The notes beneath the pieces were generated by a model. It was not told the origin of the DNA. It did not search any database and worked only from the letters and a program-made list of their open reading frames with translations. Positions 1-14,972 of a stretch of DNA of 14,972 nt are shown one piece after another. Each line of letters starts with the position of its first letter. Positions within the stretch are counted from its first letter, which is position 1. Origin of the DNA: a virus (taxonomy: Duplodnaviria; Heunggongvirae; Uroviricota; Caudoviricetes); the IMG/VR virus record IMGVR_UViG_3300029656_000143, positions 1-14,972 of that record; one strand, 5' to 3'. The position numbers and the translations under genes are program-made.

Positions 1-336
1 ATGGCTTCTAAAAAATTTTACTCAGATGATGACATCCAGCTGGCAAAAGCTGCTTTATCAGAATTGCCGGACCTCACCGCTCAACGGAAAACATTGCGTG
101 ATTTTCTTGATGCCATTCGTGATGACATTATTGTCCTGGTAAGGACAAAGGGTTATACACTGGCAGATGTTCGTGACACGCTCAAAAATGCAGGGTATGA
201 AGTAGGAGAGAAGGCACTTCGTGACATTATTCGGGAAGCAGAATCGAAAAAACCATCCCGCCGTTCTTCCTCTAAAACAGCACCTAAAAAGACAGATTCA
301 GGCAGGAAAGATGGCATCGATATGAACAACAATTAA
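1..336 (+). CDS. hypothetical protein, 111 aa, with a basic Ser/Lys/Arg-rich C-terminal tail; possibly 5'-clipped by the window edge
   Basis: ORF begins with ATG at window position 1 and ends with TAA at 334-336. No family recognised. Composition suggests a small nucleic-acid-binding protein (inference only). Confidence 0.4.
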   Translation: MASKKFYSDDDIQLAKAALSELPDLTAQRKTLRDFLDAIRDDIIVLVRTKGYTLADVRDTLKNAGYEVGEKALRDIIREAESKKPSRRSSSKTAPKKTDSGRKDGIDMNNN

Positions 337-351
337 TGTGACAATGTCACA
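337..351. repeat. perfect 15-bp palindrome TGTGACAATGTCACA
   Basis: Read directly: 7-bp arms TGTGACA/TGTCACA around a central A, starting 1 nt after the stop of ORF 1-336, between convergent ORFs. Confidence 0.6.
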
Positions 352-421
352 TCGTGTTCTGAGATTATGATGATTACAGAAAAAAAAGCCCCGGCATAAA
401 TACCAGAGCTTTTCTGTTTAA

Positions 422-1270
422 TCAGACTCGTGGCGGCAATACACCAGGATAATGCCGTGCAATAATATCATTCAGTTTTTCAACAAGGTCAGAACGCTTA
501 AAGACAATGTGTACGGTCCCTTTCTGGTAGCCACGCACCGTAAAATATTCCCCTTCTAACAACTTACCGACATTGTCGCCGTTCCCGAGAAATTCACCAT
601 ACTGCGCCCCGATGCTGTTCCTGAAGTCAGGAACGTTGCGCCCGTCCAGCAGATAAAAAGGACGTACCAGGTCATCCAGTACCTCCCGTCCGCTGCAGTC
701 CAGCGTCACACGCCCGTTACTCCAGCGGTACAGCATGTTTTCAATAATGATTCTCTTGCCCAGACGGCAGGGATTATTGGTTCTGTAATCCCATGACAAT
801 TTCCGGTAGACATCAATCAGTCCCTGTTCAAATGTCTGCATCTTGCTGGCATTCAGATGGCGGAATGTTGCCAGCACATTGTCCAGGGTGATTTCAGGAC
901 AGGTGTCGCTCATCAGCTGGCTATTCCACTCATCACACTGGCATGAACTCATGAAGGTGTACATGCCCGTATCTGTCATCAGGCGGTCCCAGATTTTCCG
1001 GTCGGCAAGACGGGTGATATTCCTTTTCGCTTCTTCCGGTTTATCTATGCGACGAACGGAATCAGTCACGCAGTCTTCAAACCCGTAAAGAAAAATATCA
1101 CCTGACGCATCGAGCAGAATCTTGCGCGCTGTCGCCAGGCATTCCATCGCCTGCATGAACAGTGCAATACCTTCGTTACGCTGCGCGATGATGCGGTCGA
1201 TAGCCACAGACGGAATAACATCTGTCGTGCCGGCAGTATTCAGGTCAGCAGTGGGTAAAGTCTGATTCAT
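422..1270 (-). CDS. orphan hypothetical protein, 282 aa (283 aa if the GTG at 1273 is used); family not recognised
   Basis: Long uninterrupted minus-strand ORF. ATG (plus-strand CAT at 1268-1270) is preceded on the coding strand by GAGGAGA 8 nt upstream. Globular-looking composition. Possible resemblance to DUF4942-type island proteins is a weak recollection only. Confidence 0.65.
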   Translation of the reverse strand: MNQTLPTADLNTAGTTDVIPSVAIDRIIAQRNEGIALFMQAMECLATARKILLDASGDIFLYGFEDCVTDSVRRIDKPEEAKRNITRLADRKIWDRLMTDTGMYTFMSSCQCDEWNSQLMSDTCPEITLDNVLATFRHLNASKMQTFEQGLIDVYRKLSWDYRTNNPCRLGKRIIIENMLYRWSNGRVTLDCSGREVLDDLVRPFYLLDGRNVPDFRNSIGAQYGEFLGNGDNVGKLLEGEYFTVRGYQKGTVHIVFKRSDLVEKLNDIIARHYPGVLPPRV

Positions 1271-1745
1271 CACATTGTCTCCTCATCGTCACGACTGCCG
1301 GGTCAGCCAGGTCATTTCCCGGAGGAGCGAAGCTCCTTCTGCCGTCCGGGTCTTCGGGGATTTCCCCGCAGTGGACCTTTCCGACGGGGGACGCTCACCA
1401 CGTCACGGGGCAGTTGTCCGGGGGCAGACGCAAAAGTTTTTGACGCCTGCGGCAAAAAGTTTTGTGGCTGGTACATCTCTCCCCTGGACGACTGAAACGG
1501 GATGTGGTCGTGTATGTACCCCCGGAAAGTTCGTCTGCGGAGAACGGGCCGCAGTGCGGCGGCAGACAGGCAGAGACAGCTGCGCCATCAGGCGCAGTGG
1601 CCTTACACACCGTAAGGTGTGCAGGGAGCGCCGCATCCGGCGCGACTGAAGAAAAACGACGGCACAACAATGGCATGTGGTGGTCACTGGCACACCACTC
1701 CCGCACAGGTGAAAACAGAGAAAACCGCACGACATTTACAACCAA

Positions 1746-1835
1746 AAAAAGTGAAATTTCTTCACTTTTTCACACTTATTTATCGCGTTGATTTGGTGAT
1801 TATGATGATAAAATAAAGTGAAGTTTTTTCACTTT
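1746..1835 (+). promoter_or_regulatory. promoter region with two operator-like palindromes upstream of the HTH gene
   Basis: Palindrome 1 is AAAAAGTGAA-ATTTC-TTCACTTTTT at 1746-1770. Palindrome 2 is AAAGTGAA-GTTTT-TTCACTTT at 1815-1835. Between them are a -35-like TTGATT (1788-1793) and a -10-like TAAAAT (1809-1814). The SD AAAGGTG lies at 1839-1845 before the ATG at 1850. Hexamer assignment is approximate. Confidence 0.5.
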
Positions 1836-1849
1836 TTCAAAGGTGTTTT

Positions 1850-2101
1850 ATGACCGGCTGGGAACTGCGAATCTGGCGAAAAAGCATGCTCTGGTCACGC
1901 GAAAAAGCGGCCAGAGAATTTGGCGTGACGCAGAGAACATGGCACGCCTGGGAAAATGCGGAACAGGTGGATGTCACCGTCTGGAGGACCACCCAGGCAC
2001 TTTCAGTCCGTGACCTGCTGCCTCACATGCAGGGGATGCGTAAGGCAGATATCATCAGGCGACTGGAAAATGAACTGGGGGAAACGGCAGAGGATGTGTG
2101 A
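1850..2101 (+). CDS. small XRE-type helix-turn-helix DNA-binding protein, 83 aa (putative autoregulated regulator)
   Basis: The segment WSREKAAREFGVTQRTWHAWE matches the HTH pattern of Cro/CI-type regulators. Good SD, ATG start, TGA at 2099-2101. Operator-like palindromes lie immediately upstream. Confidence 0.65.
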   Translation: MTGWELRIWRKSMLWSREKAAREFGVTQRTWHAWENAEQVDVTVWRTTQALSVRDLLPHMQGMRKADIIRRLENELGETAEDV

Positions 2102-2131
2102 GCGTGATTCACAGCCTGGCTGAATGCCAGG

Positions 2132-2302
2132 CTACTGCTCATCAGGAAACAGCTTTTTCAGTTCTTCACCGGAAAGTCCGGTCGCCTCCTGAATCCGTTC
2201 CGGCGTCCAGCCCATATCCCGCAGCCGGCAGGCTATTTCCCGCGCCACTTCAAGAGCACCTTTTTCAAAACCTTTCTGTATAAGACGTTCTGCAATCGTC
2301 AT
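2132..2302 (-). CDS. possible small protein resembling the C-terminal repeat domain of Rpn/YhgA-family proteins (56 aa from the internal ATG; the ORF track extends it to 2398, into the IS end)
   Basis: MTIAERLIQKGFEKGALEVAREIACRLRDMGWTPERIQEATGLSGEELKKLF has the G..G....A......G...E.I...TGLS.EEL pattern I associate with Rpn/YhgA C-termini. AGGAG lies 13 nt upstream of the ATG. Could be a gene fragment or spurious. Confidence 0.3.
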   Translation of the reverse strand: MTIAERLIQKGFEKGALEVAREIACRLRDMGWTPERIQEATGLSGEELKKLFPDEQ

Positions 2303-2325
2303 GCTGTTTGCTCTGCTCCTGCTGG

Positions 2326-2352
2326 CAAAAAAGCCCGGGATTTTGCCGGGCT
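2326..2352 (-). terminator. intrinsic terminator-like hairpin (minus-strand sense)
   Basis: AGCCCGG (2332-2338) and CCGGGCT (2346-2352) form a 7-bp stem with a 7-nt loop. On the minus strand it is followed by TTTTTT (complement of the A-run 2326-2331). Confidence 0.5.
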
Positions 2353-2448
2353 TTGCGGTTCTCTGCGTATTACCGTGAAGGAGATCGGTGAGTAACATCG
2401 ATGGAGATCGGTTCGTGTCACTTTCACAGAACCGTTTTTAAATTACCT

Positions 2449-3198
2449 TCACTGATCTCCTTCGGTCAACGGAGATTGTATTTTCCGCATTGATTCTCCT
2501 TTAAGTTCGATCTTGATACTGCCATGAACCAGTCGATCTAGGATGGCATCCGCATGTGTGGAGTCTCCGATCATTTTGTACCAGTTTTCCACCGGCAACT
2601 GGCTCACTACGATGATTGAGCCTCGTTGGTACATCAGATCCACTATTTCCAGCAGGTCGCTACGCTGTTCTGATGAGAGAGGTTCCAGCCCCCAGTCATC
2701 CAGAAGCAGCAGATCGCTATTATTCAGCCTGGTCAAAAGTTTGCTGTATCTTCCATCAGCATGCCCCTGATAGCACTGTTCCATCAGCGCTTTAAGGCGA
2801 TAATAGTAGACCTTGTATCCCTGTCGGCAGGCATTATGACCAAGTGCACATGCCAGGAACGTTTTACCGCTGCCGGTGGCCCCGGTCAGTAAAATATTTT
2901 GTTTCAGGGTTAACCAGTTTCCCTGACTGAGTGAACGGATGAGGGCCCTGTCCAGCCCTCTATTGTTACGATAATCCAGCTTTGATAACTCAGCATTAAG
3001 TCTGAACCGTGCATGTTTGATCAGACGCTCTGCCTTCCTGTTTTCACGGCAGGTTAGTTCTTCTGCTGTCAGTAATGACAGGCGTTCTTCGAAGCCCAGC
3101 TCCTGGTATGTGCCCGGCTGAGCAAGTTGCTTTTTAAGCGCATCACGGAAGCCGGTGAGTTTAAGTGCGGTCAGTTGTTCGTAAAGATGATTCATCAT
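2449..3198 (-). CDS. istB: IS21-family transposition helper ATPase IstB, 249 aa
   Basis: Walker A GATGSGKT and Walker B LLLLDDWG in a DnaC-like AAA+ layout; lies immediately downstream of istA on the same strand. Confidence 0.9.
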   Translation of the reverse strand: MMNHLYEQLTALKLTGFRDALKKQLAQPGTYQELGFEERLSLLTAEELTCRENRKAERLIKHARFRLNAELSKLDYRNNRGLDRALIRSLSQGNWLTLKQNILLTGATGSGKTFLACALGHNACRQGYKVYYYRLKALMEQCYQGHADGRYSKLLTRLNNSDLLLLDDWGLEPLSSEQRSDLLEIVDLMYQRGSIIVVSQLPVENWYKMIGDSTHADAILDRLVHGSIKIELKGESMRKIQSPLTEGDQ

Positions 3199-3209
3199 TG
3201 GATCCCGTA

Positions 3210-4751
3210 TCAGTGGTAATACTCACTGCCGCGTACGTTTTCGTGTTCCATCGTGGATAACAGATCTGGTTTTGGATCCTGAACAGGTTGTTTATCCAGA
3301 CCTTTTTCCAGGATCGATTTAATACCTGACAGACGCCATACCTTTGTTTTCAGAGCTCTTGCACATGCTGCATTAAGTCTGGCTTTACTGTATTTTTTAT
3401 GAAGGTTCAGGAGTCCAAGGCAGAAGCGATAGCTTTGTTCCGGATGTGGACGAGAGTTCAGTATATGAAGCACATAACTATGAGTTTCACTGCCTATGTG
3501 CCCCGCCCATTCCAGAAGACGCTCTGGCGTCCAGGTGGCATGCTGTCGATGAGCTTCAGGCATGTGCTCGTTGCGGGTACTGTAGCCATAAGTACGCTTG
3601 CGCGGGTGCACAGCAACCTCCTGCCCCTGATTGAAGAGTCTTACCAGTTCTCCGGAGATCCATGCTTCCAGTTGCTGGCCTAACAGCGAACATGGAACCG
3701 AGTAGTAATGTTTGTCGATTTCCACGTGGTAATCGGCATGGACTCTGACTTTCTTCACCAGGGTGTAACTGTAACTGGCTTCAGGAAGAGGCTTCAGTGC
3801 GGGTTTATCAAGCTGGATGAAGAGTTCTGCACGTGAATAACCCAACTTCTGCATTATTTTGTTATTCAGTCTTTCCAGCAACTCCCGAATGCGCTGATTA
3901 AGCGATGCAAGGCTGTAGAAGATCTCATGCCTGATTCGGGCCATGATCCAGCGTTCAACAACCTGAACGCCAACTTCAGCTTTGGCTTTATCTTTCGGTT
4001 TACGTGGCCGCGCAGGCAAAACTGCGACATTATAATGCTCAAGCATCTGCTGGTAGGTAGGGTTAACGTCAGGATCATACTTACATGCCCTGGATGTGGC
4101 GCTTTTCAGATTGTCCGGAACAACAAGTTCAGGAACGCCACCCAACCACTGGAAGCAGCGAACATGACTCATCACCCAGTCTTCAAGCTGCTGAGACCAG
4201 GTGGCCTCTGCCCATGTGTAACTTGATGCCCCGAGAACAGCTACGATGACCTGAGCAGTTCTTATTTCTCCGGTCTCAGGGTCGGTAACGCCAACGGTAG
4301 GTCCACAGTAATCAACGAAAAGTTTTTCGCCAGCTTTATGTACCTGACGCATTGATGGTGAAGTGGTTTTGAGCCATTCACGGTACATCCGGCAGTAATG
4401 GTTATAGCTGTAAAAACCGCCTGGATTACGCTCACAGTATTCTTCCCAGAGTAGCTGCAGCGTCACGCATTTATTACGCAGTTCCCGGTGTACTGTAGCC
4501 CAGTCAGGCAGAGAGTGCTTCTTCATCTTAACCTGGGTCTGAAGGAACGCATGTTTTAGTTTTGTATCATCCCATCCTGTAGGTAAGGGCCACTGCTTTA
4601 TGCCAAGTTGAGCCGCCCGATTAGCATATCTGGATACAACGGAAGGGGAGATTGCAAGACTACGACCAATTTGTCGATGGCTGAGTCCAACACCGTATTT
4701 AAGCCTAAGAATTTCTTTAAGTTTTCTCATAGAAATTGGAACTGTTGGCAT
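3210..4751 (-). CDS. istA: IS21-family transposase IstA, 513 aa
   Basis: N-terminal HTH (LSHRQIGRSLAISPSVVSRY), central DDE-type integrase core, IS21-type C-terminal region; 11-bp gap to istB. Confidence 0.9.
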   Translation of the reverse strand: MPTVPISMRKLKEILRLKYGVGLSHRQIGRSLAISPSVVSRYANRAAQLGIKQWPLPTGWDDTKLKHAFLQTQVKMKKHSLPDWATVHRELRNKCVTLQLLWEEYCERNPGGFYSYNHYCRMYREWLKTTSPSMRQVHKAGEKLFVDYCGPTVGVTDPETGEIRTAQVIVAVLGASSYTWAEATWSQQLEDWVMSHVRCFQWLGGVPELVVPDNLKSATSRACKYDPDVNPTYQQMLEHYNVAVLPARPRKPKDKAKAEVGVQVVERWIMARIRHEIFYSLASLNQRIRELLERLNNKIMQKLGYSRAELFIQLDKPALKPLPEASYSYTLVKKVRVHADYHVEIDKHYYSVPCSLLGQQLEAWISGELVRLFNQGQEVAVHPRKRTYGYSTRNEHMPEAHRQHATWTPERLLEWAGHIGSETHSYVLHILNSRPHPEQSYRFCLGLLNLHKKYSKARLNAACARALKTKVWRLSGIKSILEKGLDKQPVQDPKPDLLSTMEHENVRGSEYYH

Positions 4752-4932
4752 AGGTATCCTTTACCGGAATGGCAAAAGATACAGATCAACACACCTGTGA
4801 AGTTCCAATAACATTGATGGAGATCACTGAATAACAAAATGAGTCAAAAGTGATCTCCATCGATGTTATTCAGCGATCTGTTCAAATGTTATTACCCGAT
4901 CTCGATGGAAGTTATTGAGTGATCTCCTTTCA

Positions 4933-6694
4933 TGAAAATACGCAAACGCTAATTGCCGTGGCGAACATGGCCGAAAGTTATAAACCCGCTCTTGCCGAAG
5001 GCTCAGGGCGTTCGCAGACCTGTCGCATGGTCATCATCGTCAGCAGTGTGGCCTCAGTGGAGCTGACCATTGACACCACAACGGTGATGGCGACGCAGGA
5101 TTACGTTGATGACAAAATTGCAGAGCACGAACAGTCACGACGTCACCCGGACGCCTCGCTGACCGCAAAAGGTTTTACTCAGTTAAGCAGTGCGACCAAC
5201 AGCATATCTGAAACACTGGCCGCAACGCCGAAAGCGGTTAAGGCCGCATATGACCTTGCTAACGGGAAATATACCGCACAGGACGCTACCACAGCGCGAA
5301 AAGGTCTTGTCCAGCTAAGCAGTGCGACCAACAGCACGTCTGAAACACTGGCCGCAACACCAAAAGCCGTTAAGACGGTAATGGATGAAACGAACAAGAA
5401 AGCGCCATTAAACAGCCCTGCACTGACCGGAACGCCAACGACGCCAACTGCGCGACAGGGAACGAATAATACTCAGATCGCAAACACGGCTTTCGTTATG
5501 GCCGCGATTGCCGCCCTTGTAGACTCGTCGCCTGACGCACTGAATACGCTGAACGAGCTGGCAGCGGCGCTGGGCAACGACCCGAATTTTGCTACCACTA
5601 TGACTAATGCGCTTGCGGGTAAGCAACCGAAAGATGCTACCCTGACGGCGCTGGCGGGGCTTGCTACTGCGGCAGACAGGTTTCCGTATTTTACGGGGAA
5701 TGATGTTGCCAGTCTGGCAACTCTGACAAAAGTCGGGCGGGATATTCTTGCGAAATCGACCGTTTCCGCCGTTATCGAATATCTCGGTTTACAGGAAACG
5801 GTAAACCGAGCCGGGAACGCCGTGCAAAAAAATGGCGATACCTTGTCCGGTGGACTTACTTTTGAAAACGACTCAATCCTTGCCTGGATTCGAAATACTG
5901 ACTGGGCGAAGATTGGATTTAAAAATGATGCCGATGGTGACACTGATTCATATATGTGGTTTGAAACAGGTGACAACGGCAATGAATACTTCAAATGGAG
6001 AAGTCGCCAGAGCACCACAACAAAAGACCTGATGAATCTTAAATGGGATGCTCTGTATGTTCTTGTTAAAGCCCTTTTCAGCAGTGAAGTAAAAATATCT
6101 ACAGTCAATGCACTGAGGATATTTAATTCATCTTTTGGTGCTATTTTTCGCCGTTCTGAAGAAAACCTGTATATCATCCCTACACGAGAAAATGAGGGTG
6201 AAAATGGAGATATTGGGCCATTAAGGCCATTCGGCATCAACTTAAGAACAGGAGTTGTGTCTGTTGGTAATGGTGCCAGGATTGATGGCGGGCTGGCACT
6301 TGGCACGAATAACGCGTTGGGTGGGAACTCTATTGTTCTTGGTGATAACGACACCGGATTTAAACAAAATGGCGATGGTAATCTGGATGTTTATGCTAAT
6401 AACGTCCATGTTATGCGCTTTGTTTCCGGAAGCATTCAAAGTAATAAGACCATAAATATTACGGGGCGTGTTAATCCCTCGGATTACGGTAACTTTGATT
6501 CCCGCTATGTGAGAGATATCAGACTTGGCACACGTGTTGTCCAGACCATGCAGAAAGGGGTGATGTATGAGAAAGCAGGGCACGTAATTACCGGGCTTGG
6601 TATTGTCGGTGAAGTCGATGGTGATGACCCCGCAGTATTCAGGCCAATACAAAAATACATCAATGGCACATGGTATAACGTCGCACAGGTGTAA
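4933..6694 (+). pseudogene. H: 5'-truncated P2-type tail fibre gene H; the first ~80-100 codons are missing, replaced by the IS end
   Basis: Product from TLIAVANMAESYKPALAEGSGR onward, ending GTWYNVAQV, matches my recollection of the P2 gpH tail fibre. The ORF-track reading frame (4919-6694) begins with a GTG inside the IS terminus. No upstream H segment is present left of the IS. Confidence 0.85.
5180..5374 (+). repeat. tandem 63-bp repeat units (period 132 bp) inside H
   Basis: 5180-5242 and 5312-5374 are near-identical (CAGTTAAGCAGTGCGACCAACAGCA... / CAGCTAAGCAGTGCGACCAACAGCA...), encoding QLSSATNS(I/T)SETLAATPKAVK twice. Confidence 0.7.
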
Positions 6695-6697
6695 TTT

Positions 6698-7225
6698 ATG
6701 CAGCATTTAAAAAATATTACTGCGGGTAATCCAAAAACTGTTGCCCAATATCAACTGACAAAAAATTTTGATGTTATCTGGTTATGGTCCGAAGAGGGAA
6801 AAAACTGGTATGAGGAAGTAAGTAATTTTCAGGAAGACACGATAAAGATTGTTTACGACGAGAATAATATAATTGTCGGCATCACCAGAGATGCTTCAAC
6901 GCTTAACCCTGAAGGTTTCAGCGTTGTCGAGGTTCCTGATATTACCTCCAACCGACGTGCTGATGACTCAGGTAAATGGATGTTTAAGGATGGTGCCGTG
7001 ATTAAGCGGATTTATACGGCAGATGAACAGGAGCAACAGGCAGAATCACAAAAGGCAGCTTTACTTTCCGAAGCTGAATCCGTGATTTTTCCGCTGGAAC
7101 GCGCTGTCAGGCTGAATATGGCGACGGATGAGGAACGCAGCCGACTGGAAGCATGGGAACGCTACAGCGTTCTGGTCAGTCGTGTGGATCCTGCAAATCC
7201 CGAATGGCCGGAAATGCCGCAATAA
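6698..7225 (+). CDS. G: tail fibre assembly protein (P2 gpG-type), 175 aa
   Basis: Starts 4 nt after the H stop with SD AGGTG. Sequence (MQHLKNI...[12 protein letters not shown]) matches my recollection of P2-type G/Tfa proteins and the conserved H-G order. Confidence 0.85.
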
Positions 7226-7446
7226 GTTGTATGATCTCTGGTGTGAGCTTACATATCTATAGCACAGAGTAAAGCCTAATCTGACAGACCGCTCTGTGTC
7301 TGGAGTAGATTTTAGTAAAGCATTATTTTATTAGTGCAAATTCTAATCAATACATTTTATGTATATGATATCCTGCGGACTTTAATGACTTGGTTTAGGC
7401 TAACCAGATAACACTGAAGGAATATTTTTGATAATTAAGGTGCGGT

Positions 7447-8040
7447 ATGTTTACTAAGCGACGATTAAAAAATATTAACTGGGAGGCAAGTTCAGTGATT
7501 CTTGCTATGGTTCTCTTTGTTGGAAATATATTTTACACAAATCACCGTGATGATATAAGCATGGAGGCTGAGAGGGACAGTATCAGAACAATGTTTGCAT
7601 ATGAAATCGCTAATAACCATCGCGCTCTCACTTTTCTTGATAAAACGAGACATATTGGCTTTGACGAAAATTCGGAGCATTTTGTTGGCGAGCCTTTTGC
7701 CATTAATGTCAAATCATTAGGAGGGCCTCGCTTACAGGTTGCATTAAACCAGACTGATAAAGTGTTTAAAGCCTACTTCAGTGAATTAAGTAAACTTGAT
7801 AAAGAGGATGTTACTCTTCTTATGGACTATTACAATGAGCAAAGCATCCTGCTGGAGTGTGTAAAATCTACGTTACAGAAGATGAAAAGCAATAATGATA
7901 TTAAAGTTGATATTGATGGTTACTTATTAGAAGAACACTTCATGAATGAGTTTAATCTTTCTAATATTTTGCTTAAACGCTATAGCCATTTGTTGTCACA
8001 ACACCTCAAAAAACCTGAAACAAAAGATTTACATAATTGA
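7447..8040 (+). CDS. AT-rich 197-aa membrane-anchored protein at the Z/fun lysogenic-conversion locus; candidate superinfection-exclusion / anti-phage protein
   Basis: Position between G and FI is where P2 carries Z/fun. SD AAGGTG 5 nt upstream. Visibly AT-rich codon usage compared with flanking tail genes. N-terminal KRRLK followed by the hydrophobic stretch SSVILAMVLFVGNIFY (signal-anchor-like). Flanked by 221-bp and 329-bp noncoding regions and a strong terminator. Confidence 0.7.
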   Translation: MFTKRRLKNINWEASSVILAMVLFVGNIFYTNHRDDISMEAERDSIRTMFAYEIANNHRALTFLDKTRHIGFDENSEHFVGEPFAINVKSLGGPRLQVALNQTDKVFKAYFSELSKLDKEDVTLLMDYYNEQSILLECVKSTLQKMKSNNDIKVDIDGYLLEEHFMNEFNLSNILLKRYSHLLSQHLKKPETKDLHN

Positions 8041-8247
8041 TGATCTGCTAATGGTTATTCATGGGATAACTATGTTTTATATGTAATCCAACTCAGATGA
8101 ATTATTGATTCTGGATAATAACCGCAGAGCGGCATATACCCTGACAGGCAAATGTCCGCTTCTTGATCAAAGCAGACTGTCAGATTTGATAACTTTTGGG
8201 TTATGTAAATTGTCAGTCGGAAAATGAGTGTGTACAAATCAGGACAG

Positions 8248-8273
8248 GCGGGCGAATTGCCCGCTTTTTCTTT
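8248..8273 (+). terminator. rho-independent terminator downstream of the Z/fun-locus gene
   Basis: GCGGGC (8248-8253), loop GAATT, GCCCGC (8259-8264), then TTTTTCTTT (8265-8273). Confidence 0.65.
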
Positions 8274-8369
8274 ATCTGTTGTTTCATCCACTGACCAGCC
8301 AGGTCAAATAGCGTCTCATGCACTACCCAACGGAAAATAGTTGCACCCATTAACCACGGAGTTAAACGG

Positions 8370-9560
8370 ATGAGTGACTATCATCACGGCGTGCAGGTGC
8401 TGGAAATTAACGACGGCACCCGCGTCATTTCCACCGTATCCACGGCCATTGTCGGCATGGTCTGCACGGCCAGCGATGCGGATGCGGAAACCTTCCCCCT
8501 CAATAAACCGGTGCTGATTACCAATGTGCAGAGCGCAATTGCAAAGGCCGGTAAAAAAGGCACGCTGGCGGCGTCGTTACAGGCCATCGCAGACCAGTCA
8601 AAACCGGTCACCGTTGTTGTGCGCGTGGAAGACGGCACCGGCGACGACGAAGAAACGAAACTCGCGCAGACCGTTTCCAATATCATCGGCACCACCGACG
8701 AAAATGGTCAGTACACCGGACTGAAAGCCCTGCTGGCGGCGGAGTCGGTAACCGGTGTTAAACCGCGTATTCTCGGTGTGCCGGGACTGGACACCAAAGA
8801 GGTGGCTGTTGCACTGGCATCAGTCTGTCAGAAGCTGCGCGCTTTCGGGTATATCAGCGCATGGGACTGTAAAACCATTTCCGAGGTGAAAGCCTACCGT
8901 CAGAATTTCAGCCAGCGTGAGCTGATGGTCATCTGGCCGGATTTCCTCGCATGGGATACGGTCAGCAGTACCACCGCCACCGCGTATGCCACCGCCCGTG
9001 CGCTGGGTCTGCGCGCTAAAATCGACCAGGAGCAGGGCTGGCATAAAACGCTGTCCAATGTCGGGGTGAACGGTGTTACCGGCATCAGCGCATCCGTCTT
9101 CTGGGATTTGCAGGAGTCCGGCACCGATGCTGACCTGCTTAACGAGTCTGGTGTCACAACGCTGATTCGCCGCGACGGTTTCCGCTTCTGGGGTAACCGT
9201 ACCTGCTCTGATGACCCGCTGTTCCTCTTTGAAAACTACACCCGCACCGCGCAGGTGCTGGCCGACACGATGGCTGAGGCGCACATGTGGGCGGTGGACA
9301 AGCCCATCACCGCAACGCTGATTCGCGACATCGTTGACGGCATTAATGCCAAATTCCGTGAGCTGAAAACAAACGGCTATATCGTGGATGCGACCTGCTG
9401 GTTCAGCGAAGAATCCAACGATGCGGAAACCCTCAAGGCCGGAAAACTGTATATCGACTACGACTATACCCCGGTGCCTCCTCTTGAAAACCTGACCCTG
9501 CGCCAGCGTATTACCGATAAATACCTGGCAAATCTGGTCACCTCGGTTAACAGCAATTAA
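8370..9560 (+). CDS. FI: contractile tail sheath protein (P2 gpFI), 396 aa
   Basis: MSDYHHGVQVLEINDGTRVISTV... matches my recollection of P2 FI. SD GGAG upstream. Length and FI-FII-E-T-U-D order as in P2. Confidence 0.92.
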   Translation: MSDYHHGVQVLEINDGTRVISTVSTAIVGMVCTASDADAETFPLNKPVLITNVQSAIAKAGKKGTLAASLQAIADQSKPVTVVVRVEDGTGDDEETKLAQTVSNIIGTTDENGQYTGLKALLAAESVTGVKPRILGVPGLDTKEVAVALASVCQKLRAFGYISAWDCKTISEVKAYRQNFSQRELMVIWPDFLAWDTVSSTTATAYATARALGLRAKIDQEQGWHKTLSNVGVNGVTGISASVFWDLQESGTDADLLNESGVTTLIRRDGFRFWGNRTCSDDPLFLFENYTRTAQVLADTMAEAHMWAVDKPITATLIRDIVDGINAKFRELKTNGYIVDATCWFSEESNDAETLKAGKLYIDYDYTPVPPLENLTLRQRITDKYLANLVTSVNSN

Positions 9561-9572
9561 GGAGCCTGACCG

Positions 9573-10091
9573 ATGGCAATGCCGCGCAAACTCAAGTTAA
9601 TGAACGTCTTTCTGAACGGCTACAGCTATCAGGGCGTTGCAAAGTCCGTCACGCTGCCAAAACTGACCCGTAAGCTCGAAAACTATCGCGGTGCGGGGAT
9701 GAACGGCAGCGCACCGGTAGACCTCGGCCTTGATGACGATGCGCTGTCAATGGAGTGGTCGCTCGGGGGCTTCCCGGATTCGGTTATCTGGGAGCTTTAC
9801 GCCGCAACCGGCGTGGATGCCGTGCCGATTCGTTTTGCTGGCTCTTACCAGCGCGACGATACCGGCGAAACGGTGGCCGTCGAAGTAGTCATGCGTGGAC
9901 GTCAGAAAGAAATCGACACCGGCGAGGGGAAACAGGGAGAAGATACCGAGTCGAAAATCTCCGTGGTCTGCACCTATTTCCGGCTGACGATGGACGGTAA
10001 GGAGCTGGTCGAAATTGACACCATCAACATGATTGAGAAGGTGAACGGCGTCGACCGGCTGGAGCAACACCGCCGCAATATCGGCCTGTGA
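9573..10091 (+). CDS. FII: tail tube protein (P2 gpFII), 172 aa
   Basis: SD AAGGAG overlaps the FI stop. Sequence and length as recalled for P2 FII; position directly after the sheath gene. Confidence 0.92.
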   Translation: MAMPRKLKLMNVFLNGYSYQGVAKSVTLPKLTRKLENYRGAGMNGSAPVDLGLDDDALSMEWSLGGFPDSVIWELYAATGVDAVPIRFAGSYQRDDTGETVAVEVVMRGRQKEIDTGEGKQGEDTESKISVVCTYFRLTMDGKELVEIDTINMIEKVNGVDRLEQHRRNIGL

Positions 10092-10098
10092 TTTTCAT

Positions 10099-10119
10099 CC
10101 GGTCAGCCAGGCTGACCGG
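10099..10119. repeat. perfect 21-bp palindrome CCGGTCAGCC-A-GGCTGACCGG between FII and E
   Basis: Read directly; 10-bp arms; lies 8 nt after the FII stop. No T-run follows. Confidence 0.55.
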
Positions 10120-10147
10120 TTAACCCTGATTCAGAAGTGAGAAAACC

Positions 10148-10423
10148 ATGAACAAAGAAAATGTGATTACCCTGGACAATCCGGTCAAGCGTGGTGAGCA
10201 GGTCATCGAACAGGTCACGCTAATGAAACCCAATGCCGGGACGCTGCGCGGTGTCAGTCTGGCTGCGGTCGCGAACTCCGAAGTCGATGCACTGATTAAA
10301 GTGCTGCCGCGCATGACGGCACCGATGCTGACCGAACAGGAAGTTGCCGCGCTGGAACTGCCTGACCTTGTGGCGCTGGCCGGTAAGGTGGTCGGTTTTT
10401 TGTCGCCGAACTCGGTGCAGTAA
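10148..10423 (+). CDS. E: tail assembly chaperone (P2 gpE), 91 aa
   Basis: Small ORF between the tube and tape measure genes, with the slippery site near its 3' end; matches the P2 gene order. Confidence 0.85.
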   Translation: MNKENVITLDNPVKRGEQVIEQVTLMKPNAGTLRGVSLAAVANSEVDALIKVLPRMTAPMLTEQEVAALELPDLVALAGKVVGFLSPNSVQ

Positions 10424-10575
10424 CGTTCCCGAAAAATCTCTCGGTCGATGACCTGATGGCGGATGTGGCAGTGATATTTCACTGGCCGCCATCAGAACTG
10501 TATCCCATGAGTCTGACCGAACTCATCACATGGCGCGAAAAGGCGCTCCGGCGAAGCGGAAACACGAATGAGTAA
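10148..10575 (+). CDS. E+E': tail assembly chaperone E+E', 142 aa, made by programmed -1 ribosomal frameshift at T TTT TTG (10396-10402)
   Basis: Translating by hand, a -1 shift at the heptamer continues VAELGAVTFPKNLSVDDLMADVAVIFHWPPSELYPMSLTELITWREKALRRSGNTNE to the TAA at 10573-10575, overlapping the T start. 85 + 57 aa = 142 aa, the recalled size of P2 E+E'. Confidence 0.75.
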
Positions 10576-13015
10576 CAATGTAAAATTACAGGTATTGCTC
10601 AGGGCTGTTGACCAGGCATCCCGCCCGTTTAAATCCATCCGTACAGCGAGCAAGTCGCTGTCGGGGGATATCAGGGAAACACAAAAATCACTGCGCGAGC
10701 TGAACGGTCACGCATCCCGTATTGAGGGATTTCGCAAGACCAGCGCACAGCTCGCCGTGACTGGTCAGGAACTGAAAAAAGCCAGACAGGAAGCCGCAGC
10801 TCTGGCTGTCCAGTTTAAAAATACTGAACGACCGACAAATGCACAGGCAAAGGCAATGGAAGCCGCGCGTAAAAATGCGTCTGAGTTACAGGCGAAATAT
10901 AACAGCCTGAGATTGTCGGTACAGCGCCAGCGTCAGGAATTGAGTCAGGCGGGTATTAATACCCGTAATCTGGCGCATGATGAACGAGGGCTGAAAAACC
11001 GTATCAGTGAAACCACCGCACAGCTTAACCGTCAGCGCGACGCGCTGGCGCGTGTCAGTGCGCAACAGGCAAAACTTAACGCAGTCAAACAGCGTTATCA
11101 GGCAGGCAAGGAACTGGCCGGAAATATGGCCTCGGTGGGCGCTGCCGGTGTGGGGATTGCGGCGGCGGGAACGATGGCCGGAGTTAAGCTGCTGATGCCC
11201 GGTTATGAGTTTGCGCAGAAAAACTCAGAATTGCAGGCTGTGCTCGGTGTGGCAAAAGACTCCGCCGAAATGGCCGCGCTCCGCAAACAGGCGCGCCAGC
11301 TCGGCGACAACACCGCCGCCTCGGCGGATGATGCGGCCGGTGCACAGATTATCATTGCGAAAGCGGGTGGAGATGCTGCGGCTATTCAGGCGGCAACGCC
11401 GGTCACGCTGAATATGGCGCTGGCGAACCGCCGCACGATGGAAGAAAACGCCGCCCTGCTGATGGGGATGAAATCCGCCTTTCAGCTTTCAAACGATAAG
11501 GTCGCTCATATCGGGGATGTTCTCTCCATGACGATGAACAAAACCGCCGCCGATTTTGACGGCATGAGCGATGCGCTGACCTATGCCGCACCTGTGGCAA
11601 AAAATGCCGGTGTCAGCATTGAAGAAACCGCCGCAATGGTCGGGGCGCTGCATGATGCAAAAATTACAGGCTCAATGGCGGGGACGGGAAGCCGTGCCGT
11701 GTTAAGTCGCCTGCAGGCACCAACGGGAAAAGCATGGGATGCACTCAAAGAGCTTGGCGTGAAAACCTCAGACAGCAAGGGAAACACCCGGCCAATATTT
11801 ACCATTCTGAAAGAAATGCAGGCCAGTTTTGAGAAAAACCGGCTCGGTACTGCCCAGCAGGCCGAATACATGAAAACCATTTTCGGGGAGGAAGCCAGCT
11901 CAGCCGCCGCCGTGCTGATGACTGCCGCCTCAACCGGAAAGCTGGACAAACTGACTGCTGCGTTTAAAGCCTCAGACGGGAAGACCGCAGAGCTGGTAAA
12001 TATTATGCAGGACAATCTCGGCGGTGACTTTAAGGAGTTTCAGTCCGCTTATGAGGCGGTGGGGACTGACCTGTTTGACCAGCAGGAAGGCGCACTGCGT
12101 AAGCTCACGCAGACGGCCACAAAGTATGTGTTAAAACTCGACGGCTGGATCCAGAAAAACAAATCACTGGCGTCAACCATCGGCATCATTGCCGGTGGTG
12201 CACTGGCACTGACTGGTGTCATCGGTGCCATTGGCCTCGTAGCCTGGCCGGTTATCACCGGCATCAATGCCATTATCGCGGCAGCAGGCGCAATGGGAGC
12301 AATCTTCACGACGGTTGGCAGTGCTGTTATGACGGCCATCGGGGCGATTAGCTGGCCGGTTGTGGCCGTGGTGGCCGCCATTGTCGCCGGGGCGTTGCTT
12401 ATCCGTAAATACTGGGAGCCTGTCAGCGCATTCTTTGGCGGTGTGGTTGAAGGGCTGAAAGCGGCATTTGCGCCAGTGGGGGAACTGTTCACGCCACTTA
12501 AGCCGGTGTTTGACTGGCTGGGTGAAAAGTTACAGGCCGCGTGGCAGTGGTTTAAAAACCTGATTGCCCCGGTCAAAGCCACACAGGACACCCTGAACCG
12601 TTGCCGTGATACGGGTGTCATGTTCGGGCAGGCACTGGCTGACGCGCTGATGCTGCCGCTTAATGCGTTCAACAAACTGCGCAGCGGCATTGACTGGGTA
12701 CTGGAAAAGCTCGGGGTCATCAACAAAGAGTCAGACACACTTGACCAGACCGCCGCCAGAACTCATGCCGCCACGTATGGCACCGGTGGTTATATTCCGG
12801 CGACCAGCTCTTATGCAGGCTATCAGGCTTATCAGCCGGTCACGGCACCGGCTGGCCGCTCTTATGTGGACCAGAGTAAAAACGAATATCACATCAGCCT
12901 GACGGGTGGTACTGCGCCGGGGACACAGCTTGACCGCCAGTTACAGGATGCGCTCGAAAAATACGAGCGGGATAAACGTGCGCGCGCCCGTGCCAGCATG
13001 ATGCATGACGGTTAA
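10568..13015 (+). CDS. T: tail tape measure protein (P2 gpT), 815 aa
   Basis: Coiled-coil-like Q/A/R/K-rich N-terminal third and a long Gly/Ala/Ile-rich hydrophobic segment (about aa 530-620), typical of tape measure proteins. Length and position as in P2. Confidence 0.9.
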   Translation: MSNNVKLQVLLRAVDQASRPFKSIRTASKSLSGDIRETQKSLRELNGHASRIEGFRKTSAQLAVTGQELKKARQEAAALAVQFKNTERPTNAQAKAMEAARKNASELQAKYNSLRLSVQRQRQELSQAGINTRNLAHDERGLKNRISETTAQLNRQRDALARVSAQQAKLNAVKQRYQAGKELAGNMASVGAAGVGIAAAGTMAGVKLLMPGYEFAQKNSELQAVLGVAKDSAEMAALRKQARQLGDNTAASADDAAGAQIIIAKAGGDAAAIQAATPVTLNMALANRRTMEENAALLMGMKSAFQLSNDKVAHIGDVLSMTMNKTAADFDGMSDALTYAAPVAKNAGVSIEETAAMVGALHDAKITGSMAGTGSRAVLSRLQAPTGKAWDALKELGVKTSDSKGNTRPIFTILKEMQASFEKNRLGTAQQAEYMKTIFGEEASSAAAVLMTAASTGKLDKLTAAFKASDGKTAELVNIMQDNLGGDFKEFQSAYEAVGTDLFDQQEGALRKLTQTATKYVLKLDGWIQKNKSLASTIGIIAGGALALTGVIGAIGLVAWPVITGINAIIAAAGAMGAIFTTVGSAVMTAIGAISWPVVAVVAAIVAGALLIRKYWEPVSAFFGGVVEGLKAAFAPVGELFTPLKPVFDWLGEKLQAAWQWFKNLIAPVKATQDTLNRCRDTGVMFGQALADALMLPLNAFNKLRSGIDWVLEKLGVINKESDTLDQTAARTHAATYGTGGYIPATSSYAGYQAYQPVTAPAGRSYVDQSKNEYHISLTGGTAPGTQLDRQLQDALEKYERDKRARARASMMHDG

Positions 13016-13029
13016 GGAGGTGACGAAAA

Positions 13030-13509
13030 ATGATGCTCGCGTTAGGTATGTTTGTTTTTATGCGCCAGACGCTGCCACACCAGACCATGCAGCGTGAATC
13101 AGATTATCGCTGGCCGTCAAATTCCCGTATCGGTAAACGGGACGCCTTTCAGTTTCTCGGTGTGGGTGAGGAAAACATCACGCTGGCCGGTGTGCTTTAT
13201 CCCGAACTGACCGGCGGAAAGCTGACGATGACCACGCTCAGACTGATGGCAGAGGAAGGCCGGGCGTGGCCGTTGCTGGATGGCACCGGCATGATTTACG
13301 GCATGTATGTCATCAGCAGGGTGAGTGAAACAGGGAGTATTTTCTTTGCAGACGGCACACCCCGGAAAATTGATTTTACGCTGTCGCTCACCCGCGTTGA
13401 TGAATCACTGGCCGCGCTTTATGGCGATATCGGTAAACAGGCGGAGTCGCTCATCGGTAAGGCTGGCAGTATGGCGACTAAATTCACGGGTATGACGGGG
13501 GCGGGATAA
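13030..13509 (+). CDS. U: tail protein U (P2 gpU), 159 aa
   Basis: SD AGGAGG (13015-13020) overlaps the T stop. Length and order as in P2. Stop overlaps the D start (TAATG). Confidence 0.85.
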   Translation: MMLALGMFVFMRQTLPHQTMQRESDYRWPSNSRIGKRDAFQFLGVGEENITLAGVLYPELTGGKLTMTTLRLMAEEGRAWPLLDGTGMIYGMYVISRVSETGSIFFADGTPRKIDFTLSLTRVDESLAALYGDIGKQAESLIGKAGSMATKFTGMTGAG

Positions 13510-14672
13510 TGCTGGATGCACTGACATTTGATGCAGGCAGTACGCTGACGCCGGATTACATGCTGATGCTCGACAGCAGGGATATTACCGGCAATATCAG
13601 CGACCGTCTGATGAGCATGACCCTGACGGATAACCGGGGCTTTGAGGCTGACCAGCTTGATATTGAACTGAGCGATGCCGACGGGCAGGTCGGGCTACCG
13701 ATTCGTGGCGCTGTCCTGACGGTGTATATCGGCTGGAAAGGTTTTGCCCTGGTATGCAAAGGGAAATTTACCGTTGATGAGGTTGAACACCGGGGCGCGC
13801 CGGATGTGGTTACCATCCGCGCCCGGAGTGCAGATTTTCGCGGGACGCTCAATTCCCGCCGTGAAGGCTCCTGGCATGACACCACGCTCGGTGCGATTGT
13901 TGAGGTGATAGCCTCCCGTAACAGGCTGGAAGCCAGTGTCGCGCCGTCACTGGCCGGAATTAAAATCCCGCACATCGACCAGTCGCAGGAGTCTGATGCA
14001 AAATTCCTGACCCGCCTTGCTGAACGCAACGGCGGTGAGGTGTCGGTAAAAATGGGAAAACTGTTGTTTCTCAAAGCGGGGCAGGGAGTGACGGCCAGCG
14101 GTAAAAAAATCCCGCAGATTACCATAACCCGCAGCGACGGCGACCGTCATCATTTTGCGATTGCTGACCGTGGAGCCTACACCGGCGTAACGGCAAAGTG
14201 GTTACACACCAAAGACCCGAAGCCGCAAAAGCAGAAGGTAAAACTGAAACGCAAAAAGAAAGAGAAACACCTGCGCGCACTGGAGCACCCCAAAGCGAAA
14301 CCGGTCACGCAGAAGAAAGCGCCAAAAGTACCGGAAGCGCGCGAAGGTGAATACATGGTCGGTGAGGCTGACAACGTTTTTGCCCTGACCACGGTTTATG
14401 CCACGAAAGCACAGGCCATGCGCGCCGCTCAGGCGAAGTGGGACAAACTGCAACGGGGCGTCGCGGAGTTTTCCATCAGCCTGGCTACCGGTCGGGCAGA
14501 TATTTACACGGAAACACCGGTTAAAGTGTCAGGCTTTAAGCGCGTCATAGACGAGCAGGACTGGACAATCACTAAGGTGACACATTTTCTGAATAATAGC
14601 GGCTTCACGACGTCCTTAGAGCTTGAGGTCAGGCTTTCTGATGTGGAGTACGAAACAGAAGATGATGGGTGA
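13509..14672 (+). CDS. D: tail protein D (P2 gpD), 387 aa
   Basis: ATG overlaps the U stop by 1 nt. Length and position as in P2. Contains a Lys-rich tract at about 14210-14345. Confidence 0.88.
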   Translation: MLDALTFDAGSTLTPDYMLMLDSRDITGNISDRLMSMTLTDNRGFEADQLDIELSDADGQVGLPIRGAVLTVYIGWKGFALVCKGKFTVDEVEHRGAPDVVTIRARSADFRGTLNSRREGSWHDTTLGAIVEVIASRNRLEASVAPSLAGIKIPHIDQSQESDAKFLTRLAERNGGEVSVKMGKLLFLKAGQGVTASGKKIPQITITRSDGDRHHFAIADRGAYTGVTAKWLHTKDPKPQKQKVKLKRKKKEKHLRALEHPKAKPVTQKKAPKVPEAREGEYMVGEADNVFALTTVYATKAQAMRAAQAKWDKLQRGVAEFSISLATGRADIYTETPVKVSGFKRVIDEQDWTITKVTHFLNNSGFTTSLELEVRLSDVEYETEDDG

Positions 14673-14753
14673 TGTTTTTATTTTATCTATTTGTTTTATA
14701 AGGATAAATTAACTAAAATGGCACCATCAACAAAACCGGAAGAGGTGCTCGCG

Positions 14754-14972
14754 ATGTTTCATTGTCCTTTATGCCAGCATGCCGCACATGCGCGTACAAG
14801 TCGCTATATCACTGACACGACAAAAGAGCGTTATCACCAGTGTCAGAACGTGAATTGCAGCGCCACGTTCATCACTTATGAGTCGGTACAGCGATACATC
14901 GTGAAGCCGGGAGAAGTCCACGCCGTAAGACCGCACCCGTTGCCGTCAGGGCAGCAAATTATGTGGATGTAA
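14754..14972 (+). CDS. ogr: late-gene transcriptional activator Ogr (zinc-finger), 72 aa
   Basis: MFHCPLCQHAAHARTSRYITDTTKERYHQCQNVNCSATF... with the C-X2-C-X22-C-X4-C zinc finger. I recognise this as P2 Ogr. SD GAAGAGG upstream of the ATG at 14754. AT-rich 80-bp region upstream. Confidence 0.92.
   Translation: MFHCPLCQHAAHARTSRYITDTTKERYHQCQNVNCSATFITYESVQRYIVKPGEVHAVRPHPLPSGQQIMWM

Follow-up and report, generated by a model that had tools for sequence, protein, structure and literature searches.

The 14,972-nucleotide stretch of DNA that was analysed here (the window) contains a complete copy of an insertion sequence which, on alignment, is the known Escherichia coli element ISEc12 of the IS21 family. 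It lies between DNA of an IncI1 plasmid on the left and the truncated tail fibre gene H of a P2-type prophage on the right, and it lacks a target-site duplication. The explanation that we tentatively prefer, giving it slightly less than an even chance, is that the IS is a hybrid joint, formed from one insertion into the plasmid and another into the prophage, and that the plasmid was fused to the chromosome in the cell. The preliminary description of this DNA had regarded the IS as a deletion or rearrangement endpoint. It was right in that the mismatched flanks mark a rearrangement joint rather than a simple insertion, but an assembly artefact competes seriously with any such event. The element, the mechanism and both partners are already well known and call for no new biology; what is seen in the window results either from IS-mediated joining of a routine sort or from a mis-join during assembly, and it does not represent a new kind of element.

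ISEc12 and its missing target duplication

ISEc12 occupies positions 2364 to 4944 of the window (2581 bp, minus strand), as given by full-length alignment to reference copies, that is to copies which RefSeq labels “IS21-like element ISEc12 family”. Over the full length, the identity of the window copy is 99.96% to L002, 99.88% to L004 and 100% to L008. The element runs from TGCGTATT to AATACGCA, with imperfect terminal inverted repeats and the ends 5'-TG and CA-3'. As is characteristic for the IS21 family, two genes follow each other directly, both on the minus strand: istA (3210 to 4751), encoding a DDE transposase of 513 aa with an N-terminal HTH (NF033546, 310 bits at a cutoff of 160; Pfam rve and Mu-transpos_C_2), and then istB (2449 to 3198), encoding an AAA+ helper ATPase of 249 aa (Pfam IstB_IS21; PF01695, 227 bits; NF038214, 270 bits at a cutoff of 200). 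The istA and istB profile matches above the cutoffs confirm the earlier assignment to the IS21 family. The IS ends that had been proposed together with it (2376 and 4932) are each 12 bp too far in, since the alignment of ISEc12 copies gives 2364 and 4944, and what had been taken as flanking DNA, GCGTATTACCG and TGAAAATACG, is the terminal inverted repeat proper. The istB-distal terminal inverted repeat (2364 to 2410) starts with TGCGTATT and contains the motif GGAGATC at 2380 and again at 2403, and the istA-proximal one (4898 to 4944) ends with GATCTCCTTTCATGAAAATACGCA. The distance of 23 bp between both GGAGATC motifs is the same as the spacing described for the direct repeats within the terminal inverted repeats of IS21 (PMC10122671).

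When the corrected ends are applied, ISEc12 copies elsewhere are flanked by target duplications of 5-6 bp, namely TATAT, ACCAC, and GTTCTC, and a fourth copy is flanked by the duplication ACTGC (PMC10711316). The copy in the window is preceded by GCGGTTCTC and followed by AACGCTAATT, which means GTTCTC on the left versus AACGCT on the right. No flanking repeat of 4-8 bp is present at the corrected ends, nor with either end shifted by up to 3 bp. The absence of a duplication, noticed before with the wrong ends, thus persists after the ends have been corrected against the three reference copies with TATAT, ACCAC, and GTTCTC. Since the duplication expected for the IS21 family is missing here but present in the reference copies, its absence concerns the history of this particular copy and not the family assignment.

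Origin of the plasmid and prophage halves

The left flank (1 to 2363) is IncI1 plasmid backbone of the nikA-proximal side, an assignment that refers to this backbone segment, with the replicon gene lying beyond the window edge. It is 98-100% identical to IncI1 plasmids on the nucleotide level, with 99.6% to pAMSC6 and 100% to L007-L011, and in the IncI1 plasmid pAMSC6 the matching segment is located beside nikA, nikB, and trbABC. The flank is found with at least 80% query coverage in 1356 records, and nearly all of the matching places are plasmids. Among complete genomes, 24 of 2661 places with IncI1 backbone (about 1%) are chromosomal, and chromosomal IncI1 backbone also occurs on contigs of Mb size, some of them with IS elements as boundaries. 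The statement that the DNA left of the IS is not P2 DNA is borne out by this plasmid identity and by the lack of any match of the left flank in the phage collection. The segment contains orf111 (1-336, plus strand), a DUF4942 gene (422-1270, minus strand; Pfam/NCBIfam), an ORF of 65 aa (1619-1816, plus strand), a gene for an HTH regulator (1850-2101, plus strand; Pfam/NCBIfam) and a small Rpn C-terminal-like ORF (2132-2302, minus strand), which has 77 aa in IS-free plasmids. A further plasmid ORF of 56 aa is ubiquitous in IncI1 plasmids and therefore uninformative. A terminator-like hairpin, AAAAAGCCCGG gatttt GCCGGGCTTT, can be read from the sequence at 2328 to 2354 (plus strand), a few bases ahead of the plasmid target site; it was not called by the terminator scan.

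The left flank ends with GTTCTC (2358 to 2363), the left one of the two 6-bp copies that arose with the insertion into the plasmid; the partner of this copy is absent from the window. This partner is found in the gut-metagenome scaffold L008, which is 100% identical to positions 1-4944 of the window and then continues with GTTCTC and plasmid DNA, its filled site being GTTCTC-IS-GTTCTC. The empty site reads GCGGTTCTCATCAG in L007 and L003, the IS-free plasmid site is also present in L009 and L011, and the right flank of the plasmid, on the other side of the insertion site, reads GTTCTCATCAGTGAG. The plasmid-IS junction corresponds to one side of a simple insertion of the canonical type, with the target GTTCTC.

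The right flank (4945 to 14972) comprises a P2-type prophage region from nucleotide 297 of H through ogr and is 100% identical to an intact ST131 prophage adjoining pflB in L001. The P2-type segment is 95.3-95.8% identical to P2, P2_AC1, and pro147. It shows the Peduovirus late-gene order H-G-(cargo)-FI-FII-E/E'-T-U-D-ogr, and the following genes are all on the plus strand. The tail fibre assembly protein G (6698 to 7225; phrog_136, 267 bits) is annotated in L001. It is followed, at the position of P2 Z/fun, by a putative cargo ORF of 197 aa (7447 to 8040), which matches phrog_3829 only and has no match in Pfam, NCBIfam, or PADLOC. The tail operon FI, FII, E/E', T, U, D (8370 to 14672; Pfam) is intact and 100% identical to that of L001, and the late-gene activator ogr (14754 to 14972; PF04606) corresponds to positions 17810-18028 of L001 (ogrK). 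The upstream part of the complete P2 layout, with V-W-J-I and a full-length H, is not in the window, and nothing P2-related lies left of the IS. The earlier description of the prophage as a remnant that retains H'-ogr alone goes further than the window does. Two contigs that match the window from 4815 to 14972 and begin within the IS end extend into the chromosome: the Logan contig L005 reaches pflB, and the MEGAHIT contig L024 of 132.5 kb shows, at a distance of 319 nt behind ogr, a gene of the pflB type (PFL-like/Gly_radical). The junction between the IS and the truncated H (H') forms the terminus of chromosomal contigs in gut metagenomes of the TwinsUK study (PRJEB9576) and in a few other runs or assemblies. 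The right flank originates from a chromosomal prophage beside pflB.

The breakpoint in H (2046 nucleotides) is at 296/297, so that H' lacks the first 99 residues; of the 150 profile positions of PF12571, the N-terminal tail-fibre domain in Pfam, 107-150 are left (about 106 lost). A fusion ORF of 591 aa (4919 to 6694, plus strand; H-derived DNA from 4945 to 6694) consists of 9 codons from the IS end and the junction, followed by H residues 100-681. The in-frame GTG at 4919 with GGAAG 7 nt upstream, on which such an IS-H fusion had been proposed, does open an ORF that is called by gene finders, with the 591-aa product in six contigs and a 575-aa version starting from ATG 4967 in two Logan contigs. 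No promoter-like site facing H' or the fusion ORF was found in the promoter scan, and it is most likely that the truncated H' is silent.

The right flank begins with AACGCT (4945 to 4950; H nucleotides 297-302), a candidate right copy of a 6-bp duplication. In L022 and L023, which represent a different P2 prophage with an AACGTT allele, the same ISEc12 end abuts H nucleotide 302. Since this end (302) overlaps the start of H' in the window (297) by 6 nt, AACGCT can be assumed to be half of a duplication. Judged from these sequences, the IS-H' junction would correspond to the opposite side of a canonical insertion, in this case at AACGCT in H, and the site in H is a genuine ISEc12 target in the other P2 prophage.

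Possible joining of both halves across ISEc12

If plasmid and chromosome were fused, the left junction would be the plasmid half of a simple ISEc12 insertion into an IncI1 plasmid at GTTCTC, and the right junction would be the downstream half of an ISEc12 insertion in H of the P2-like prophage on the pflB side at AACGCT. The halves may have been joined by RecA recombination between the plasmid-borne and the prophage-borne ISEc12, or alternatively by a replicon fusion of the IS21 type, in which the IS of the plasmid would attack H. By both routes, IncI1 DNA would become joined to the chromosome within H, in the manner of Hfr formation. An H5'-IS junction is predicted by fusion as well as by recombination; since it was not found, a further deletion step has to be assumed. 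This second step, an IS-adjacent deletion or a recombination with another ISEc12, would probably have removed upstream DNA together with the 5' end of H. The predicted H5'-IS junction was represented by 20 chimeric products (duplication lengths of 0-8, four N-terminal variants), none of which is present in a collection of 15 billion proteins upon exact look-up. Searching for homologues of H residues 1-101 gave no H5'-IS junction for this H allele either; the only case, P0002, has the AACGTT allele, and its junction is absent from the complete genomes. The absence of H5'-IS would agree with the 5' part of H having been lost, as negative evidence only.

Neither of the two 100-bp junction probes matched any of 5426 complete genomes of E. 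coli or of 72,556 plasmids (PLSDB), and the exact junction patterns were not found in IMG/VR, the GTDB representatives, or the JGI metagenomes. Exact look-ups of the IS-to-plasmid read-through ORFs of 88 aa and 86 aa and of a 578-aa variant of H' also gave no hit. Several observations speak against a fusion in the cell: no public record contains either junction across the whole IS plus the other flank, the scaffold L008 from the same study joins plasmid left and plasmid right through the same IS, short-read contigs break at the IS ends and leave the flanks unlinkable, and for every integrated IncI1 plasmid there are about 100 free ones.

The strongest alternative is an assembly chimera, which we consider a serious candidate, although it clearly stays below an even chance as well. 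The strain would contain IncI1 as a free plasmid, interrupted by a simple insertion of ISEc12, and separately a chromosomal arrangement X-ISEc12-H', and assembly would have misjoined the two across the 2.6-kb repeat. The plasmid-prophage linkage would then not exist in the cell, but the IS, both junction halves and the truncated state of H would remain genuine. Each side of the window is 100% identical to short-read human-gut contigs of one and the same study (L008 on the left, L005 and L024 on the right, with L008 and L024 both from PRJEB9576, XieH_2016), in which L008 resolves the repeat the other way, with a matching GTTCTC duplication. Moreover, the MEGAHIT contigs L010, L024, and L025 end 127-141 nt inside both IS ends, from which it follows that two or more copies of the IS are present in those samples and that short reads cannot link its flanks, as expected for a multi-copy repeat that is not bridged by short inserts. 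The rarity of integrated IncI1 (about 1% of places) also favours a mis-join, and the inventory of junctions (X-IS, plasmid left-IS, IS-plasmid right, and IS-H') is identical in the linked and the unlinked model. None of the collections searched contains the contig of the window itself. However, a chimera requires an X-IS junction that was not seen and a separate deletion of the H 5' part, and a mis-join over 2.6 kb would be unlikely if the window came from a long-read or finished genome. In ERZ27306524, the one assembly that could be checked for both, the plasmid-IS junction (L010) and the IS-H' junction (L025) co-occur, which is what linkage predicts as well. If the join is an artefact, it is a reason for caution, as mismatched IS flanks in an assembly of uncertain provenance do not prove a deletion.

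Rather improbable is an intramolecular transposition in one step, in which the istA-side IS end would have hit H in cis and deleted the DNA up to H nucleotide 297, corresponding to the deletion endpoint of the preliminary description. Plasmid and prophage would already have been one molecule, of which the old flank and the new flank remain. This single step would cover the missing duplication together with the missing H5'-IS junction, with the old insertion junction on the left and a site that ISEc12 is known to use on the right. However, a previous plasmid integration on the upstream side of the prophage would have to be postulated, the IS-GTTCTC-plasmid junction that the step would delete persists in the same study (L008), and this reading hangs on the same presumed plasmid-prophage linkage as the hybrid joint. 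It is very unlikely that an IS-bounded fragment from H' to ogr was captured by an IncI1 plasmid. P2 tail-gene blocks (window 8344-14972) are present on many PLSDB plasmids, but these begin at 8344, show an identity of about 96% and do not include the ISEc12-H' junction. A P2 segment on a plasmid was rejected, as the 100%-identical contigs, one of them 132.5 kb long, pass ogr and the attachment site and extend into pflB. Finally, a simple insertion with a duplication hidden by misdefined ends is practically ruled out by the corrected and shifted ends and by flanks that come from different replicons, even though the ends given first were indeed off by 12 bp per side.

Comparison with known systems

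Simple insertions of ISEc12 are known as tssM::ISEc12 (E. coli ST131 clade C; PMC10711316), as H::ISEc12 (strain 23AR1183, L002) and as a copy in an IncI-gamma/K plasmid (L004). These copies are 99.9-100% identical to the window copy and agree with it in their ends, in the istA-istB layout and in the host species, but whereas they have 5-bp duplications in one continuous target, it is flanked by two replicons without a duplication. Replicon fusion and chromosome mobilisation are documented for elements of the IS21 family (PMC10122671, PMC3297565), among them IS21-mediated fusion and mobilisation by R68.45 with the tandem (IS21)2 and a cointegrase isoform (PMC10122671 references 35-37; PMC3297565 reference 45). 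Like in R68.45, an element of the IS21 family is located at a junction of conjugative plasmid and chromosome, with one donor flank and one target flank. Unlike in an R68.45 fusion, one junction is visible, and neither a second IS copy nor a target duplication that encloses the entire plasmid nor a tandem donor was seen. A cointegrate of the IS21 type would have the plasmid between two IS copies in direct repeat, and the target duplication would be divided between both outer junctions (H5'+AACGCT-IS).

In classical Hfr formation, F undergoes homologous recombination via IS2 or IS3. Recombination of the Hfr type would give exactly such a hybrid IS, flanked by plasmid DNA on one side and chromosomal DNA on the other, with mismatched half-duplications, but for this route the lineage must already have had H::ISEc12 as a simple insertion, and no such insertion was found; Hfr formation by IS recombination is discussed as a mechanism in PMC3297565. 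If the linkage is true, an E. coli of the gut commensal or ExPEC type has a conjugative plasmid integrated in one of its prophages by way of an IS, and the strain could mobilise chromosomal genes while the tail-fibre module of the prophage is inactivated. In IncI1 plasmids the transfer origin adjoins nikA, and it would then be only a few kb away from the chromosomal DNA on the pflB side. We regard it as doubtful, if conceivable, that a gut E. coli lineage present in PRJEB9576 and at least one further run or assembly, with IncI1 fused via ISEc12 in a P2-like prophage, represents a natural Hfr-like strain and that H 297-302 is a recurrent target hit independently in two P2 lineages.

E. coli K-12 contains a cryptic P2 remnant with ogrK/gpD. 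The prophage part of the window resembles cryptic P2 remnants in being a partial late region that ends in ogr at the chromosomal attachment site, and it differs from them in that its boundary is an identifiable IS end. Since the 10 kb that are retained are 100% identical to the intact prophage, it can be assumed that the event was recent.

ISEc12 and its missing duplication

The element at the joint carries the adjacent genes istA (3210-4751, minus strand) and istB (2449-3198, minus strand), as found in the ORF listing and by direct reading of the sequence. They encode a 513-aa IS21-family transposase (NF033546, 310 bits; cutoff 160) and a 249-aa helper ATPase (NF038214, 270 bits; cutoff 200), respectively, and near-identical copies in RefSeq and PLSDB are labeled "IS21-like element ISEc12 family." The ends were set by alignment to the copies in two annotated records, strain 23AR1183 (L002), where a tail fibre gene is interrupted at a position different from that in the window, and an IncI-gamma/K plasmid (L004). 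The homology spans 2364-4944 (2581 bp), with an identity of 99.96% to L002 and 99.88% to L004; the window copy starts with TGCGTATT and ends with AATACGCA. Its inverted repeat is perfect over the first 8 bp and then imperfect, with GGAGATC motifs 23 bp apart, which is the motif spacing of IS21 terminal repeats (PMC10122671). The ends given in the preliminary description (2376 and 4932) each lie 12 bp too far inside according to this alignment, and the "flanks" quoted there are therefore IS sequence. With correct ends, the reference copies are surrounded by the duplications TATAT (L002), ACCAC (L004) and GTTCTC (L008, a scaffold sharing the plasmid flank of the window), and tssM::ISEc12 of ST131 by ACTGC (PMC10711316), so that 5-6 bp is the usual length for ISEc12. 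The window copy lies between ...GCGGTTCTC and AACGCTAATT..., and no direct repeat of 4-8 bp surrounds it, also when each boundary is shifted by up to 3 bp. Thus, the missing duplication, which had been the central observation, is still true with the redefined ends.

A plasmid flank and a prophage flank

The DNA left of the IS (1-2363) had rightly been regarded as not P2, since it matches none of 50,697 phage records and is IncI1 backbone instead. It matches 1433 E. coli records, at 2637 places on plasmids and 24 on chromosomes, and the assignment to the IncI1 backbone follows from pAMSC6, where the same segment adjoins nikA, nikB, and trbABC. The genes here are orf111, those of a DUF4942 protein and an HTH regulator, and a small ORF whose product is like the C-terminus of Rpn proteins; the DUF4942 protein is a rare variant, for which exact look-up returned 12 contigs. 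L007, L009, and L011, contigs with the same flank, are 100% identical to the window as far as 2363 and then show the empty site GCGGTTCTCATCAG. L008 (scaffold_1549, sample SAMEA3449217, study code XIEH16) is 100% identical over 1-4944 and continues after the IS with GTTCTCATCAG and further plasmid DNA. On this comparison, L008 represents the parental simple insertion with its 6-bp GTTCTC duplication, and the left junction of the window is one half of it. The MEGAHIT contig L010 stops 140 nt into the IS.

The right flank (4945-14972) has its counterpart in ST131-type chromosomes (e.g., L001), where a complete P2-like prophage next to pflB matches it with 100% identity; P2-group phages match it with about 95%. 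It starts at nucleotide 297 of the 2046-nt tail fibre gene H of this prophage, and G, a 197-aa cargo ORF, FI, FII, E/E', T, U, D, and ogr are intact. Contigs joining the IS to H without its 5' part (H') were found via exact look-ups of truncated H products. The Logan contigs L005 (ERR912022) and L006 (ERR3451135) both begin 30 nt within the IS, and L005 runs through ogr into pflB with 100% identity to the chromosome. Six more contigs carry truncated H products, among them L024, a 132.5-kb MEGAHIT contig of ERR912022 (PRJEB9576, the XieH_2016 UK twin cohort, from which L008 also originates) beginning 127 nt within the IS, and L025 (ERZ27306524), beginning 141 nt within it. To judge from these contigs, the IS-H' junction is present in reads of at least two runs (ERR912022, ERR3451135), in a chromosomal context. 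ERZ27306524 holds both contig ends, plasmid-IS (L010) and IS-H' (L025).

Homologues of H residues 1-101 included P0002, a 109-aa product ending in ...DDAGTFAYYREGDR, on the contigs L022 (10243-10332) and L023 (Logan ERR10376569 and SRR34028603). In both, the same ISEc12 end in the same orientation abuts nucleotide 302 of H (AACGTT allele) within a P2-like prophage with 97.3% identity to L001; this type of junction is not present in 5426 complete E. coli genomes. The end point at 302 overlaps the H' start of the window (297) by exactly 6 nt, the duplication length of the plasmid insertion, and the hexamer corresponds to window 4945-4950. Because of this overlap, the right junction resembles the downstream side of a canonical ISEc12 insertion at AACGCT. 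The H site was either used at least two times or inherited via recombination between prophages, and H is possibly an ISEc12 hot spot or the place of an old insertion spread by recombination. P2-like prophages are repeatedly interrupted by ISEc12 in complete E. coli genomes (e.g., L002:9231-11811), both at other H positions (H1-H11) and within the prophages of strains 1428_w1 and 2406_w1, which are 100% identical. Moreover, dozens of genomes carry ISEc12 in the gpA "replication endonuclease" gene, with a left flank partly like the plasmid target (the match extends 9 nt).

Origin of the joint

The window ISEc12 can be read as a hybrid, with the left flank from the plasmid insertion and the right flank from the prophage insertion. 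An exchange in the cell is given slightly less than an even chance. Recombination between plasmid-borne and prophage-borne ISEc12, or IS21-type replicon fusion, would fuse DNA of the IncI1 plasmid with the chromosome at H, and a later deletion would strip the 5' part of H (H5'). Alternatively, a plasmid integrated beforehand could give the same joint in a single step by intramolecular transposition, and with this variant counted in, an origin in the cell becomes marginally the more probable. IS21 is the classical case of replicon fusion, with tandem copies, a cointegrase isoform and the mobilisation of chromosomes by R68.45 (PMC10122671, PMC3297565). Chromosomal IncI1 segments are rare (24 of the 2661 places). 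The same IncI1 leading-region segment is found on 3.5-5 Mb contigs (L013, L015, L020; CP074234.1, AP027926.1, UGGC01000001.1), two of which (L015, L020) have it truncated by IS66- and IS4-type elements, hence IS-bounded chromosomal IncI1 fragments exist.

Nearly as likely as the exchange in the cell, though itself somewhat under even, is an exchange made by the assembler. Both IS ends break MEGAHIT contigs in metagenomes holding both junction halves, which therefore contain at least two IS copies, and in L008 the repeat was resolved as plasmid-IS-plasmid with a matching duplication. Furthermore, the window matches short-read metagenome contigs by 100% on both sides, and the four expected junctions are identical for linked and unlinked models. 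The earlier proposal that the IS marks a deletion or rearrangement endpoint agrees with flanks from separate insertions and no duplication, but an assembler join fits as well.

A reciprocal junction, H5'(...AACGCT)-IS, is predicted somewhere in the genome whether the event was a simple insertion, homologous recombination of two IS copies or a replicon fusion of the IS21 type. Chimeric ORFs across it were predicted for duplication lengths 0-8 with the L001 N-terminus and for lengths 5 and 6 with three other N-terminal variants; 0 of the 20 products occurred in a 15-billion-protein collection, which covers assemblies with IS-H'. This negative evidence suggests that H5' is now detached from any ISEc12 end in this lineage. 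A prophage remnant keeping only H' to ogr, as previously proposed, is compatible with the absent reciprocal junction, and the window by itself cannot show it. Neither 100-bp junction probe matched over its full length in any of 5426 complete E. coli genomes or 72,556 PLSDB plasmids, and IMG/VR, GTDB representative genomes and JGI metagenomes lacked the exact junction patterns. The contig of the window itself occurs in none of the collections searched. IS, plasmid backbone and prophage are all known, and the join is fully explained by standard IS biology or assembly error.

Reading frames at the joint and the prophage cargo

The fusion ORF from GTG 4919, noted before, is real and 591 aa long; its first nine codons derive from the IS end and the junction, and the rest encodes H residues 100-681. 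It is called by some gene finders, whereas others start at ATG 4967, and of the N-terminal tail-fibre domain profile (150 positions) the product covers only 107-150. The P2 late promoter normally serves V-W-J-I-H-G. Since the window is without this promoter, no sigma-70-like promoter at the IS end points towards H', and the promoter elements known from IS21 ends either serve istA or are directed outward at the other end (PMC10122671), expression of the fusion ORF is unsupported.

At the left end, the IS sits exactly (2358-2366) where, in IS-free plasmids, the start ATG of the 77-aa Rpn-C-like ORF overlaps the stop of the upstream ORF (tcATga), and destroys this ATG. A new 88-aa read-through ORF (2132-2398, minus strand) opens at ATG 2398 inside the IS and leaves via the IS end, the IS21 counterpart of which bears an outward -35 box. 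The count of small Rpn C-terminal-HTH-like ORFs after the Rpn gene varies among IncI1 plasmids (L003:10132-11306, a plasmid with the empty target site, vs. L007:7730-9139). L007 and L008 have a 57-aa plus the 77-aa ORF and pAMSC6 the 77-aa ORF only, which suggests a local duplication or deletion where the IS landed.

The 197-aa ORF (7447-8040, plus strand) lies between G and FI, the Z/fun cargo position of P2. Its sole match is phrog_3829 (unknown function), with none in Pfam, NCBIfam or PADLOC; according to annotations, Shedu, SIR2 or kinase genes occupy the same position in other E. coli prophages. It may encode an uncharacterised function in defence or lysogenic conversion. The P2 tail block from FI to ogr (8344-14972) is also plasmid-borne in PLSDB (about 96% identity), on plasmids of about 43-210 kb, many of them about 200-210 kb, in Klebsiella, Citrobacter, Enterobacter, Salmonella, Providencia, and E. 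coli.
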